Shown here: in pieces, positions 12,874 through 38,654 of the stretch
How positions within the stretch are numbered: the first letter of the stretch is position 1
How the letters are laid out: each line of letters opens with the position of its first letter
Origin: Eledone cirrhosa
Lineage: Eukaryota
Direction of reading: 5' to 3'
Length of the DNA: 64,000 nt
Assembly (NCBI GenBank): GCA_964016885.1
Contig: OZ024766.1
Span: 9,610,001 to 9,674,000 of the forward strand
Notes under the pieces: model-generated
What the model was told of the DNA's origin: nothing
Database searches by the model: none
Seen by the model: only the letters and a program-made list of their open reading frames with translations
Position numbers and translations under genes: made by a program

Positions 12874-12931
12874 ATACCTGATGATATCACCGGATTCATA
12901 CGGAACCCGGTCATTGAAATGATCATAGTAT
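12874..12931 (+). ncRNA. Type I hammerhead ribozyme motif
   Basis: atac-CTGATGA-(accgg...ccggt stem II)-GAAA-t GATC a-TA-gtat; AATAAA immediately downstream, then (TA)n. Confidence 0.8.
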
Positions 12932-12977
12932 AATAAACCTTTCAAGGATTTACACAAATCCAGCCTCCTGTCATTTC

Positions 12978-13014
<37 letters not shown>

Positions 13015-13261
13015 GTATATATAAAAAAAAACCATGTCATTTGTACTGCCTCTCTGTTTTTTGTTCTCTGTTCATTTATTAAACTAAATATATATATATA
13101 TATACACATATAGTAATAATAATAAAAAATCCCAAAAGGGCTCGATAAGGATAAATATATATCAAATATATAAGAACCCTAGAGCAAATATTTTAATAAA
13201 TATATATATACATATATATATATGAAATATAAGAATCAAAGAACTGTTCAAAACATTTTTG

Positions 13262-13308
13262 TGCTTACAACTGTTTCCTCCAAACCGAGGTTGGGATTCT
13301 TCGGAGCA
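13262..13308 (-). ncRNA. Type I hammerhead motif (U4C variant)
   Basis: Minus strand: tgct-CCGAAGA-(ccaa...ttgg)-GAAA-c agtt g-TA-agca. Confidence 0.65.
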
Positions 13309-13630
13309 ATTTATTAATGAATGGACAGTTATGTGACCTCCTTTTCACCCAAGAGACATACAGATACATATGCAAATATTGTGGGTCAACATTCATTACA
13401 GCATTTAGAGTGGCAGTACACACTTAGAGATTACATTCATATTAAAAGGTACAATCAAAAATCAATATATATATATAGGAGGTGAGTTTTATTGTAGCAC
13501 AATAAAGCAATGCAAATATCGGATAAGTAGCACTCAACAGTCTGGAGTATAAATAATATAAAATCAAAAGATGGTAGATTTAACACTTCACTGCTTGCAA
13601 GTGTTTTTTAAGCTTCATATCATGTCTCCC

Positions 13631-13697
13631 TATTTTATCTGATGAGTACGCAAATATCATCCCATGATATTTGTTTTGAAATGCGCATAATAAAATA
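13631..13697 (+). ncRNA. Type I hammerhead ribozyme motif, family A
   Basis: tattttat-CTGATGA-(gcaaatatcat ccc atgatatttgt)-GAAA-t GCGC a-TA-ataaaata; perfect 8-bp stem I. Confidence 0.85.
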
Positions 13698-14182
13698 CTT
13701 GGAACTCTTTTAACCATCTTTTGATCTTATATTATACATAACATCATCATCATCGTTTATATATGTATATTCCACACTGTAGATGTGGTTGGTGTTAGGA
13801 AGGGCATCCAGCCGTAGAAAACCTGCCAGATAGTCCCCATACGCGCGAGACACGGTCACCCGACCAATCTTACCTCAAGTGGGACAACTACCGTCTAACC
13901 CATGCTTGCGTGGAAGATGGACGTTAAACGAAGATGATGATGATGATAGATGTATTGTTATACTTGGGGAGGGCCATATTGTTATCATATTGCCAGGAAT
14001 AATAACTGTTTCTACTTTAGGCACAAGGCCAGCAATTACCCAGTGCATTACTGGTACTTTATTTTATCGACTCCGTAAGGATGAAAGGCAAAGTCAACCT
14101 CGGCGGGATTTGAACTCAGATCGTAAAGGGACGTAACTATGCTGGAAAGCATGGCGTCCGACCCTCTACCGATATTGCCAAT

Positions 14183-14222
<40 letters not shown>

Positions 14223-14252
14223 AGATCAAAAGATGGTTAAAAGAGTTCCATG

Positions 14253-14323
14253 TATTTTATTATGCGCATTTCAAAAACAAATATCTTCATGGGATGATAT
14301 TTGCGTTCTCATCAGATAAAATA
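14253..14323 (-). ncRNA. Type I hammerhead motif, family A
   Basis: Reverse complement of the same motif as 13631-13697; element abuts (TA)n at ~14190-14220. Confidence 0.82.
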
Positions 14324-14647
14324 GGGAGACATGATATGAAGCTTAAAAAACACTTGCGACCAGTGAAGTGTTAAATCAACATATGAAAAATAAAGTAAGA
14401 TGGATATATGAGATTGGGAAAAAAAGGAGAGGGGGTTAGGAAAAGGTAAGGAAGAGGAAGAAAGAAAATAAAGGATGACGGGGGAGGAGTATAAGAACGA
14501 AGGATGAGAGAGGAGGAGAAATGAGAGAGAGAGAGAGAGAGAAATAGGCTTTACAACTGAGAAAACATTGTCTCCAGTCCTACAAACTGTAGAGTGCTAC
14601 TTATCCAATATCTGCATTGCTTTATTGTGCTACAATAAAACTCATCT

Positions 14648-14698
<51 letters not shown>

Positions 14699-14860
14699 TG
14701 TTATACTTTGGGAGGGTCATGTTGCCAATGAGAAACACACGCACCAGTTGCTTTCACTTCAATTTATTATATATTTATAAATTTATAAATTTACAAATCC
14801 ACAAACTTATAAATTTCTGGTTGGTTGGTTGGTTCCACAACCAGATAGTTGTTTATATAT

Positions 14861-34926: not shown

Positions 34927-35052
34927 CTGCAAGAGGACTTCCAAAATATGATGAGAGGCCTTGAGCCATTATAATTAAACCAAATGCAATTGTTAAACTT
35001 TCAACTCCCAAAAGTTCAACCATTATTATTGAGCGAAGAGAGATAAAGGCAG
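34927..35052 (-). CDS. SLC16/monocarboxylate transporter, penultimate exon (126 nt; missed by the ORF track)
   Basis: tttttcag|CT...GCAG|gtaact; (A)AFISLRSIIMVELLGVESLTIAFGLIIMAQGLSSYFGSPLA; phases 1-1 fit the neighbouring exons. Confidence 0.9.
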
Positions 35053-35452
35053 CTGAAAAATAAATTAACTCTTAATATCCTGCAATGATTTATTGGAAAA
35101 TATCTAAAAATGAGTTTGTTAATTCAAATGTTTATAGTATCTTTACTAGTGGACAGATGTTAAACTTTGATTTGGGGTGGGGGGGGGGGTGAGGTGGAAG
35201 AAGGTTTAGCCATGTTTCAGTAACATATACATACACACGCACATACAAACACACAAATATACACATACATACACATGCACATACATACACAGAAATATAC
35301 ACATACATACACACAAATATAGACATACATGCACATATACACATACATAGACACACATACATATACATACATACACACACACATACACATACAAATAAAA
35401 TAATATGAAATAAAAACAAAAACAACCAAACAAACAAGTGTGATTTACTTAC

Positions 35453-35722
35453 CGATACATATGCCATAGACAACGCAATAGGTGACTAGAAGTGGGTAAT
35501 TCGTGAAGGAAGGAACGCAAGCTGTTGCTACACCGGAGATTAAAAGGGAACTGTAGTTGATGATGAAACAATTTGACCATTTCTGGTCACTCACCCAACC
35601 AATAATAATACGGAATATTGTGTTTGATATTCCAATGATTGATAAAAGTAAAGCTGAGTCATTTCTGGAGAATTTCAAGCTAAGACCGACAGATGGTAAG
35701 TAAGTATAAGGAATGAAGAAAC
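35453..35722 (-). CDS. SLC16/monocarboxylate transporter, internal exon (270 nt)
   Basis: ttctctttacag|GT...ATCG|gtaagt; (G)FFIPYTYLP...SALLLSIIGISNTIFRIIIGWVSD...YPLLVTYCVVYGICI. Confidence 0.9.
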
Positions 35723-35738
35723 CTGTAAAGAGAATAAA

Positions 35739-37832
35739 TAATATATATATTAATACACTTATACCTACGTACCATACGTCAGACAGTGTATGTCACACTT
35801 TCAGTAATATATATATTAATACACTTATACCTACGTACCATATGTCAGACAGTGTATGTCACACTTTCAGTAATCTATATATTAATACACTTATACCTAC
35901 GTACCATACGTCAGACAGTGTATGTCACACTTTCAGTAATCTATATATTAATACACTTATACCTACGTACCATACGTCAGACAGTGTATGTCACACTTTC
36001 AGTAATATATATATTTATACACTTATACCTACGTACCATACGTCAGACAGTGTATGTCACACTTTCAGTAATATATATATTAATACACTTATACCTACGT
36101 ACCATACGTCAGACAGTGTATGTCACACTTTCAGTAATATATATATTAATACACTTATACCTACATACCATACGTCAGACAGTGTATGTCACACTTTCAG
36201 TAATATATATATTAATACACTTATACCTACGTACCATACATCAGACAGTGTATGTCACACTTTCAGTAATATATATATTAATACACTTATACCTACATAC
36301 CATACGTCAGACAGTGTATGTCACACTTTCAGTAATATATATATTAATACACTTATACCTACGTACCATACGGCAGACAGTGTATGTCACACTTTCAGTA
36401 ATATATATATTAATACACTTATACCTACATACCATACGTCAGACAGTGTATGTCACACTTTCAGTAATATATATATTAATACACTTATACCTACGTACCA
36501 TACGTCAGACAGTGTATGTCACACTTTCAGTAATATATATATTAATACACTTATACCTACATACCATACGTCAGACAGTGTATGTCACACTTTCAGTAAT
36601 ATATATATTAATACACTTATACCTACGTACCATATGTCAGACAGTGTATGTCACACTTTCAGTAATATATATATTAATACACTTATACCTACGTACCATA
36701 TGTCAGACAGTGTATGTCACACTTTCAGTAATATATATATTAATACACTTATACCTACGTACCATATGTCAGACAGTGTATGTCACACTTTCAGTAATAT
36801 ATATATTAATACACTTATACCTACGTACCATACGTCAGACAGTGTATGTCACACTTTCAGTAATATATATATTAATACACTTATACCTACGTACCATACG
36901 TCAGACAGTGTATGTCACACTTTCAGTAATATATATATTAATACACTTATACCTACGTACCATACGTCAGACAGTGTATGTCACACTTTCAGTAATATAT
37001 ATATTAATACACTTATACCTACGTACCATACGTCAGACAGTGTATGTCACACTTTCAGTAATATATATATTAATACACTTATACCTACGTACCATACGTC
37101 AGACAGTGTATGTCACACTTTCAGTAATATATATATTAATACACTTATACCTACGTACCATACGTCAGACAGTGTATGTCACACTTTCAGTAATATATAT
37201 ATTAATACACTTATACCTACATACCATACGTCAGACAGTGTATGTCACACTTTCAGTAATATATATATTAATACACTTATACCTACGTACCATACGTCAG
37301 ACAGTGTATGTCACACTTTCAGTAATATATATATTAATACACTTATACCTACGTACCATACGTCAGACAGTGTATGTCACACTTTCAGTAATATATATAT
37401 TAATACACTTATACCTACGTACCATACGTCAGACAGTGTATGTCACACTTTCAGTAATATATATATTAATACACTTATACCTACGTACCATACGTCAGAC
37501 AGTGTATGTCACACTTTCAGTAATATATATATTAATACACTTATACCTACATACCATACGTCAGACAGTGTATGTCACACTTTCAGTAATATATATATTA
37601 ATACACTTATACCTACGTACCATACATCAGACAGTGTATGTCACACTTTCAGTAATATATATATTAATACACTTATACCTACGTACCATACGTCAGACAG
37701 TGTATGTCACACTTTCAGTAATATATATATTAATACACTTATACCTACGTACCATACGTCAGACAGTGTATGTCACACTTTCAGTAATATATATATTAAT
37801 ACACTTATACCTACGTACCATACGTCAGACAG
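35739..37832. repeat. 66-bp tandem satellite, ~31 near-identical copies
   Basis: Period 66 (35791, 35857...); gives the spurious 734- and 726-aa ORFs. Confidence 0.96.
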
Positions 37833-37834
37833 AC

Positions 37835-37884
<50 letters not shown>

Positions 37885-38038
37885 TGTTATACTTTGGGAG
37901 GGTCATGTTGCCAATAAGAAACACACACACCAGTTGCTTTCACTTCAATTTATTATATATTTATAAATTTACAAATCCACAAACTTATAAATTTCTGGTT
38001 GGTTGGTTGGTTCCACAACCAGATAGTTGTTTATATAT

Positions 38039-38083
38039 AGTCATAGTCCTTTCGTCACACACTCTGTGACCTCTTCAGTGACT
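38039..38083 (-). ncRNA. Type I hammerhead motif, family B (partial inverted copy 38299-38338, +)
   Basis: Identical to 14861-14905; lies within a ~420-bp element duplicated at ~14695-15110 and 37882-38298. Confidence 0.8.
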
Positions 38084-38390
38084 GGGGATTCCTTTCTTTG
38101 TTTCTGTGCCTTTCCTTTCTTCTGTCCTACGCCATTTTGTTTCTGTGTGTGTGTTGTGTGCTCAGTCTGCGCATGCGCCACATCCGGGTGTCTGTGTGTG
38201 TTTGTGTTCATTTATCTATTTGTTTATTTATTTATTTATTTATTTACATGTTGTTGGTTGGTTGTTTGTTCTATGTGTGTGTGTGTTTTCATTTTGTCCT
38301 GAAGAGGTCACAGAGTGTGTGACGAAAGGACTATGACTATATATAAACAACTATCTGGTTGTGGCCTCAGGTCACAGAGTATGTATAACA

Positions 38391-38430
<40 letters not shown>

Positions 38431-38583
38431 GTGGGAAAGTGAAAAATCGGAGAATAGACCGTTAAAACATGTTTATTGAAAATATCACATATATATATAT
38501 ATATATATACAGAGAGAGAGAGAGATGTTGATTTAAAACTTCACTACTCACAAGTGTTTTTTAAGCTTCATATCATATATCCC

Positions 38584-38654
38584 TATTTTATCTGATGAGA
38601 ACGCAGATATCATCCCATGATGATATTTGTTTTTGAAATGCGCATAATAAAATA
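38584..38654 (+). ncRNA. Type I hammerhead motif, family A
   Basis: tattttat-CTGATGA-(gcagatatcatc cca tgatgatatttgt)-GAAA-tGCGCa-TA-ataaaata. Confidence 0.83.

Follow-up and report, generated by a model that had tools for sequence, protein, structure and literature searches.

Hammerhead ribozymes of Penelope-like elements (PLEs) are the closest described relatives of the motifs analysed here, which lie in a 64,000-nucleotide (nt) stretch of the 3.0-Gb genome of Eledone cirrhosa (contig OZ024766.1; G000:C27:9610001-9674000), hereafter the window. Cervera and de la Pena 2014 (PMC4209133) describe most metazoan type I hammerheads as functioning in dimeric form, with a helix III of 1-2 bp capped by a small palindromic loop. 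The same source lists a palindromic 15.2-16.2 pair and loop 3 and an extreme diversity of families among the features of the PLE motif, derives single motifs from truncated PLEs, describes pairs on opposite strands 100-700 bp apart, and reports that a Schistosoma motif is active in dimers or trimers only and at a low rate. A palindromic stem/loop III has been tabulated for repeat-type hammerheads (Perreault 2011, PMC3088659, Fig. S8 legend), and the requirement for a palindrome and a tandem is stated in PMC6466107. A review (PMC6765202) describes type I motifs with a palindromic, very short stem III loop, whose cleavage as dimers is aided by their tandem layout, and cites Lunse, Weinberg and Breaker 2017 for dimer cleavage of small PLE hammerheads, work similar to the monomer-versus-dimer comparison that the initial annotation of the window had suggested. 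Palindromic loop III with dimeric cleavage is, then, an already known class feature of animal PLEs. Because the dimer model is published, it was not a new inference of the initial annotation of the window, and because the core idea is established, our finding mainly confirms dimeric palindromic hammerheads in another animal genome. What is added is a count over 16 segments of one genome, in which it is pairing and not sequence that is conserved; natural compensatory series (TATATA/TATGTA/TACGTA/TGCGCA and CGGCCG/CGATCG/CAATTG), with which the double-hammerhead model could readily be tested; and an abundant family that departs from the rule, GGAC/GAAC. Lunse 2017 may already cover points treated as minor additions, and some of the segments may already be present in the supplements of PMC4209133. 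No literature on these particular families or on family-specific codes was found in a search whose scope excluded most subscription papers.

The window is AT-rich and dense in (TA)n and tandem repeats. Motifs were searched with a descriptor consisting, in order, of the CUGANGA core, helix II, GAAA, the segment, UH and helix I. Two samples were used: a position-fetched set of 1.454 Mb (the window and 139 stretches of 10 kb chosen by position) and a larger set of 2.02 Mb, which also takes in loci chosen by sequence similarity. The strict descriptor gave 124 matches in 1.454 Mb and 0 in 1.39 Mb of dinucleotide-shuffled sequence. With the relaxed descriptor there were 288 matches in 2.02 Mb and 6 in 1.02 Mb of shuffled sequence, one of the latter with an empty segment and 0 of the other 5 palindromic. 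DNA searches of the genome itself with the GTAC and GGAC motifs returned no match; this search skips very common words, and the fetched stretches do contain copies.

The initial annotation had placed a palindrome at ten coordinates of the window. At all ten, the palindrome is located immediately 3' of GAAA and 5' of UH, and the core CUGANGA ... GAAA ... UH is present in type I order. Eight of the ten sites were recovered by the descriptor with helices I and II, while 19611, where helix II is just 3 bp, was recovered separately. The site at 29054 has its core at 28964 and a branched loop II of ~80-95 nt; it was confirmed by a 39-row alignment that keeps the core, the helix II ends, helix I and CGGCCG, and was also recovered by a long-loop descriptor (cluster F2, 23 copies). 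Helix I is 4-8 bp long in nine of the ten sites. The exception is 18101 (CG), where the core and helix II are present and the contiguous helix I is 2 bp only; 31 of the 36 copies of this family agree with the window copy over the core, CG and the bases 3' of the cut site. If a downstream strand is invoked to complete helix I at 18101, folding of the single RNA strand places this downstream strand against the 5' arm at the expense of the hammerhead. Helix I is compensated or covarying in the CTAG and 14-nt families. Judged by core, helices, segment and predicted cut-site geometry, the ten sites are confirmed as type I hammerhead motifs. Minus-strand copies at 14268, 17467, 18956, 19415, 38049, 14871 and 15393, and the families CAATG, CCACTGG and 14-nt CAGTT..., were absent from the initial annotation. 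The motifs, in window coordinates, are as follows.

7887..7935, plus strand: hammerhead with a 14-nt segment, CAGTTCTAGTCCTG, the 'agtt' of the initial annotation; 3-bp stem III and central CTAG; outside the span that the annotation covered
12874..12931, plus: type I hammerhead, TGATCA at 12920-12925; predicted cut after 12927; helix I 4 bp; 6 copies, all TGATCA
13631..13697, plus: hammerhead of the TGCGCA family, segment at 13682-13687; putative remnant of a Hydra-clade PLE terminal repeat
14253..14323, minus: hammerhead of the TGCGCA family, segment from 14268; found by the descriptor
14861..14905, minus: hammerhead of the GGAC subfamily; non-palindromic, inherited
15378..15438, minus: hammerhead, CCACTGG; odd-length interrupted palindrome, in 7 of 7 copies
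17452..17522, minus: hammerhead of the TGCGCA family, segment from 17467; found by the descriptor
18075..18106, plus: minimal hammerhead core, CG at 18101-18102; 3' end of a young element; 2-bp contiguous helix I
18372..18436, minus: inverted partner of 18467-18532, TATGTA; helix II degraded, ends approximate
18467..18532, plus: hammerhead, TATGTA; pairs with itself through G.U
18652..18717, plus: hammerhead, TATATA at 18702-18707; found by the descriptor
18941..19006, minus: hammerhead, TATGTA; found by the descriptor
19405..19443, minus: hammerhead, GTAC; inverted partner of 19583-19621, 3' ends outward
19583..19621, plus: hammerhead, GTAC at 19611-19614; 3' terminal repeat of a PLE with reverse transcriptase (RT) and GIY-YIG; 13 of 13 copies GTAC
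20186..20228, plus: hammerhead, CTAG at 20217-20220; helix I covaries between copies
25136..25171, plus: decayed minimal hammerhead, CA; core altered; CG is the family majority
28960..29065, plus: hammerhead, CGGCCG at 29054-29059; long branched loop II; diverged relatives CAATTG and CGATCG; helix I 4 bp
30370..30424, plus: hammerhead, TATATA; separate family with a different helix I
32893..32953, plus: hammerhead, TATATA at 32938-32943; found by the descriptor
34640..34850, both strands: inverted pair of degraded hammerhead-like motifs (F16); cores at 34681 (minus) and 34812 (plus)
38039..38083, minus: hammerhead of the GGAC subfamily; found by the descriptor
38299..38338, plus: inverted partner, GGAC; helix I 5' strand lost at the inversion junction
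38584..38654, plus: hammerhead, TGCGCA at 38639-38644; 97.8% identity to the 3' terminal repeat of a putative Hydra-clade PLE at G000:C6:94.82 Mb
44240..44292, minus: second copy of the 14-nt-segment family; compensated helix I
44790..45015, both strands: inverted hammerhead pair within a mannosyltransferase intron; segment CAATG, of odd length

For palindromy, 26 candidate families were compiled, comprising 24 clusters present in at least two loci and two window families confirmed by BLAST. Five rows were dropped (F10, satellite-like ATA; F14, no majority; F16, AT/AATG/CATT; F20, a tie of CCGG and ACGG; F26, two unrelated parses), and the 14-nt family, with 10 of its 14 bases paired, stands outside the scored table. 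The helix III segment is self-complementary in 20 of the 21 scorable families of the 2.0 Mb sampled: 17 are perfect palindromes, two are of odd length with a central unpaired base, one pairs in full through G.U, and one (GAAC/GGAC) is unpaired. With the 14-nt family and every dropped row scored as a failure, the count becomes 20 of 27. Since the segment ends (15.2-16.2) must pair in any hammerhead, the inner pairs alone were tested. The 16 distinct segments hold 26 inner pairs, of which 24 are Watson-Crick, against a shuffle mean of 6.8 and a maximum of 17, and 0 of 100,000 shuffles reach 24. A tabulation of loop 3 by family over these 2.0 Mb, of the kind proposed as a check for the whole genome, reveals palindromes to be enriched. 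These figures overstate the significance because the families are not independent; their sequences are nonetheless widely different.

Selection on self-pairing rather than on sequence, the central idea of the initial annotation, is borne out by three lines: this family-level count, the computed energies, and changes on both sides of the segment between related families. The TGCGCA and TATATA/TATGTA/TACGTA segments share helix I and differ on both sides of the segment. In cluster F2, CGGCCG is found in 21 of 23 copies and its relatives are CAATTG (three diverged copies) and CGATCG. Three loops, ggac, atgt and agtt, had been regarded as products of single-mutation decay, which does not agree with their distribution among copies. 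GGAC is present in 7 of the 8 copies of one subfamily together with linked diagnostic bases, i.e. it is inherited; the sister subfamily mostly has GAAC, with GAGC in two diverged copies, and no Watson-Crick palindrome occurs in the 22-23 copies of the GGAC/GAAC family. The loop atgt belongs to TATGTA, which self-pairs 6/6 via G.U and accounts for 23 of the 105 tree rows, most of them grouped in two clades. When the segment is left out of tree building, TATGTA needs 7 changes against a shuffled mean of 20.9, few columns making the detail of this tree weak. The loop agtt is a mis-parse of a 14-nt segment that is identical in 30 of 47 copies and is accompanied by a compensated helix I. GGAC/GAAC and TATGTA are, on this distribution, inherited subfamily traits. 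Genuine decay is present as well: the non-palindromic variants of TGCGCA are scattered singletons, and the CA at 25164 belongs to the CG family.

The same changes bear on whether selection on pairing is needed to explain palindromy, or whether common descent or a mutation bias (TA-repeat context, symmetric CpG decay, A-to-G editing) could have produced it. An A-to-G change converts TATATA to TATGTA, and TATATA is present in three clusters of a (TA)n-rich genome whose families are not independent; however, TACATA and TGTATA are each found 0 times among the 105 rows, and TATGTA is clustered on the tree. The 16 distinct segments of 2-8 nt mostly contain G or C, and the passage from CGGCCG to CAATTG requires a central GC to become AT, which is beyond CpG decay. 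This origin is largely refuted by the inner-pair statistic, and we regard it as highly improbable.

Computed energies suggest that the segments are suited to pairing between copies. A favourable homoduplex is obtained for 18 of 19 segments, that of GAAC alone costing energy (+1.4 kcal/mol), and the monomer hairpin is unfavourable for the 4-6-nt segments (+2.4 to +6.0 kcal/mol). A lone motif would lack a stable helix III, because a segment of 2-6 nt leaves the hairpin at +2.4 to +6 kcal/mol. A short, unstable helix III with a palindromic segment is found in 20 of the 21 scorable families and not in GGAC/GAAC. The central pair, which no hairpin can close, is Watson-Crick in 12 of the 13 even-length segments, and 27 of the 29 pairs beyond the reach of a monomer hairpin are Watson-Crick. 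The former count, together with CG and 4-nt segments too short for a loop, makes it unlikely that the motifs are monomer ribozymes in which segments of 6-14 nt form a short helix III alone, aided by loop I-loop II contacts or by proteins, with palindromy as a by-product or booster. Monomer action does find some footing in CCACTGG, CTAATTAG, CATTAGTG and the 14-nt family, all of which can be folded on paper into a helix III of 2-4 bp closed by a loop of 3-8 nt (+0.4 to +1.7 kcal/mol, three computed), and in GGAC/GAAC, which thrives without a Watson-Crick palindrome. Some invertebrate hammerheads are also known to cleave as monomers, a coral one with an observed rate constant of ~0.8 per min; the axolotl 2-bp form was 22% cleaved as a monomer, and axolotl dimers cleave better (PMC7229834).

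Copies of the motifs share a short fixed downstream stretch and a variable upstream stretch, as in 5'-truncated retrocopies. The motifs are located at the 3' end of repeat copies truncated on their 5' side, for which a PLE origin could be traced in three families and is likely in the rest. The genome is rich in GIY-YIG frames (10,596 candidates, 150 of them scored), several of which are fused to RT. In 6 of 50 GIY-YIG loci a same-strand GTAC motif is located 321-383 nt 3' of where GIY-YIG ends, and RT lies within the same open reading frame (ORF) as GIY-YIG in the GTAC loci L203, L204 and L207. In L232 the GGAC/GAAC motif follows a GIY-YIG ORF by ~240 nt, which links it to the endonuclease. 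The TGCGCA motif is found ~1.0-1.35 kb after an ORF of 565-715 amino acids (aa) in 3 of 3 fetched loci, and L293 has, 5' of the ORF, another same-strand repeat at a distance of 3.7 kb from the downstream one. Hydra-clade PLEs are marked by DKT, a CxCX5C linker, and CxxC and CxH in the C-terminal endonuclease (Craig et al. 2021, PMC8557442). The L293 ORF carries DKT, YRDD, CxCX5C, CxxC and CxH, the last two in the C-terminal endonuclease. Its protein (P0001) has no Pfam match and no PDB sequence match, and matches another PLE protein only weakly (E 2e-4); its atlas neighbours carry HTH_animal (25-100% of members) and GIY-YIG (26-38%). By these motifs and atlas neighbours, we assign the putative TGCGCA parent to the Hydra-clade PLEs.

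In L200, which does not belong to a window family, a 938-aa RT and GIY-YIG ORF is flanked by direct repeats of 1,068 bp, both of which carry a CCGG hammerhead. L200:6930 and 1951 (minus strand), as well as L201, L205, L209, L211 and L219, are PLE terminal repeats that combine a U3-A8 core variant with CCGG. About 175 nt upstream of those CCGG motifs, there is a further hammerhead-like match, weaker and with a 4-nt segment that is not palindromic.

The 18101 family is young (98-99% identity, 904 candidates), and many copies (L261, L270, L273, L277, L278) share more than 1.5 kb of C/A-rich upstream sequence, which within 1.5 kb contains only low-complexity frames. Branched insertions of 80-110 nt enlarge loop II in clusters F2, F8 and F22, and ordinary descriptors miss such hammerheads. 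A long match of the CTAG family was rejected as a TA-repeat artefact. The region around 28900-34900 of the window has a near-identical multi-kb copy at G000:C17:41.97 Mb (L221, L281, L283; 99-100% at two probes, with 1.5 kb flanks shared), which may be either a segmental duplication or a large mobile element.

The arrangement of copies was counted for 13 window families in the position-fetched set. Of their 176 copies, 89 are solo, 77 are inverted-paired (73 with 3' ends outward and 4 inward) and the other 10 lie within 2 kb of a copy on the same strand, leaving 166 without such a neighbour. An inverted partner gives antisense RNA and not a second ribozyme. Private substitutions per site amount to 0.014-0.035 in the segment versus 0.011-0.020 in the flanks and are not rarer in the segment in any of five families. 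Localization of the copies and these private changes do not agree with the earlier proposal that cleavage is gated by the meeting of two same-family genomic copies, and trans-acting ribozymes, also suggested earlier, are not supported in this analysis. Given few same-strand neighbours and neutral decay, selection for dimers is therefore likely to act on active tandem parents; the remnants look unselected, and the palindrome pattern would reflect the parents. Helix I is also formed between copies and differs among most families, and therefore specificity would not come from the palindrome alone. By the criterion for retrozymes without long terminal repeats (non-LTR), i.e. head-to-tail tandem units of 150-450 bp, none of the ten sites lies in a tandem array. 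Elsewhere, at L097:8750-9700 (G000:C3:280.0 Mb), a retrozyme-like array repeats a 311-bp unit in tandem, and every unit contains a CGCG hammerhead.

An abundance of ~100 copies per Mb (176 in 1.454 Mb, a sample biased to this chromosome), the intronic location of some copies and a geometry that permits intermolecular pairing would allow intron-transcribed remnants to pair with same-family RNAs and so switch on cleavage of host or element transcripts. We consider this very unlikely: private changes are not depleted in the segments of the five families, read-through RNA of the 77 inverted-paired copies would pair each motif with its antisense, the helices are short, and even in cis cleavage has been slow in published work.

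Instead, it is probable that the palindromic helix III pairs two copies on one RNA into a mutually cutting double hammerhead, by which a tandem parent precursor would be cut to unit length. The fold, the linkage and the conservation of pairing were observed; cleavage and dimer dependence are inferred from PLE biology and the computed energies. In this mechanism, a partial-tandem element (repeat-ORF-repeat, as in L293 and L200) would give a transcript with two same-strand motifs 3.7-5 kb apart, whose palindromes would pair antiparallel. The core and helix II of copy A would then act on the UH of copy B, with helix I forming across the copies, and the precursor RNA would be cut to unit length. 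Self-pairing would be selected in replicating parents, dispersed remnants being mostly passive copies.

Several observations weigh against this double-hammerhead mechanism. Rfam hammerhead models give 0 of 52 rows at 17300-20400 and none among 150 of the 184 window rows. The upstream motif of L293 is decayed. No consistent parent ORF was found within 1.5 kb, with 12 PLE proteins, for TGATCA, CG (18101), CTAG, CGGCCG, TATATA/TATGTA, CAATG or the 14-nt family, and the RT adjoining TATATA at 30412 (L214) ends short of an endonuclease, an ambiguous parent. GGAC/GAAC is abundant (16 copies in 1.454 Mb) though it has no Watson-Crick inner pair, and its GAAC homoduplex is computed to be unfavourable. 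Published PLE dimers are slow in vitro (PMC4209133), and coral monomers cleave well and axolotl ones partly (PMC7229834), so that segments of 6-8 nt may not strictly need a partner.

It is also conceivable, if doubtful, that the palindromes are a self-recognition code, in which the helix III of coexisting PLE families has diverged until cutting takes place solely between members of one family. Retroviral dimer-initiation loops offer an analogy. TGCGCA and TATATA are sister families with a shared 8-bp helix I, whose heterodimer would form 4/6 pairs versus 6/6, and GGAC/GAAC/GAGC would in such a code replace the Watson-Crick palindrome by a symmetric interface of purines facing purines. However, TATATA is present in three clusters, CTAG, CGATCG and CG in two each, and TATATA and TATGTA are cross-compatible.

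Other features of the window include two exons of an Alg9-like mannosyltransferase gene (Pfam PF03901) at 42333-42488 and 45210-45326 on the plus strand. Hammerhead remnants at 44285, 44831 and 44974 are located in the intron between them. From its motifs, we take this gene to resemble PIGB. An intronless open frame of 371 codons (21622-22737, minus strand) has no simple repeats and no Pfam match. Fragments at 23300-25120 and 40680-41100 resemble, by eye, the RT of long interspersed nuclear elements and are separate from the hammerhead finding. Rfam microRNA matches in the window were rejected, with scores under the gathering thresholds and positions at hairpins and TA repeats.

The in vivo role of PLE hammerheads has been called unclear (PMC8557442), and the present families would lend themselves to its study. 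Like the PLE hammerheads of PMC4209133, the motifs described here are of type I, with an extra base before helix II, a palindromic 15.2-16.2 pair and loop 3 and many divergent families, and are mostly single motifs from truncated PLEs or opposite-strand pairs; a U3-A8 core variant is likewise shared (here in L200). Unlike the motifs in the text of that paper, the CGGCCG and CGATCG families have a very long branched loop II, and one abundant family has a purine-purine centre (GGAC/GAAC/GAGC). Compared with Perreault 2011 (PMC3088659), other organisms are concerned, and a family-level shuffle statistic and within-genome compensation are given. The putative TGCGCA parent is similar to Hydra-clade PLEs (PMC8557442) in its signature motifs, canonical hammerhead, remnants beside (TA)n, and tandem and inverted insertions; the region of the RWK motif lies upstream of the open frame compared, and placement is by motifs. 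Retrozymes have been linked to PLEs (preprint 10.64898/2026.07.22.740005). Non-LTR retrozymes and the satellite hammerheads of newt and axolotl (PMC7229834; 10.64898/2026.07.22.740005) are, like the motifs of the window, of type I with a weak palindromic helix III; in contrast to those tandem arrays, the window motifs are dispersed truncated ends.

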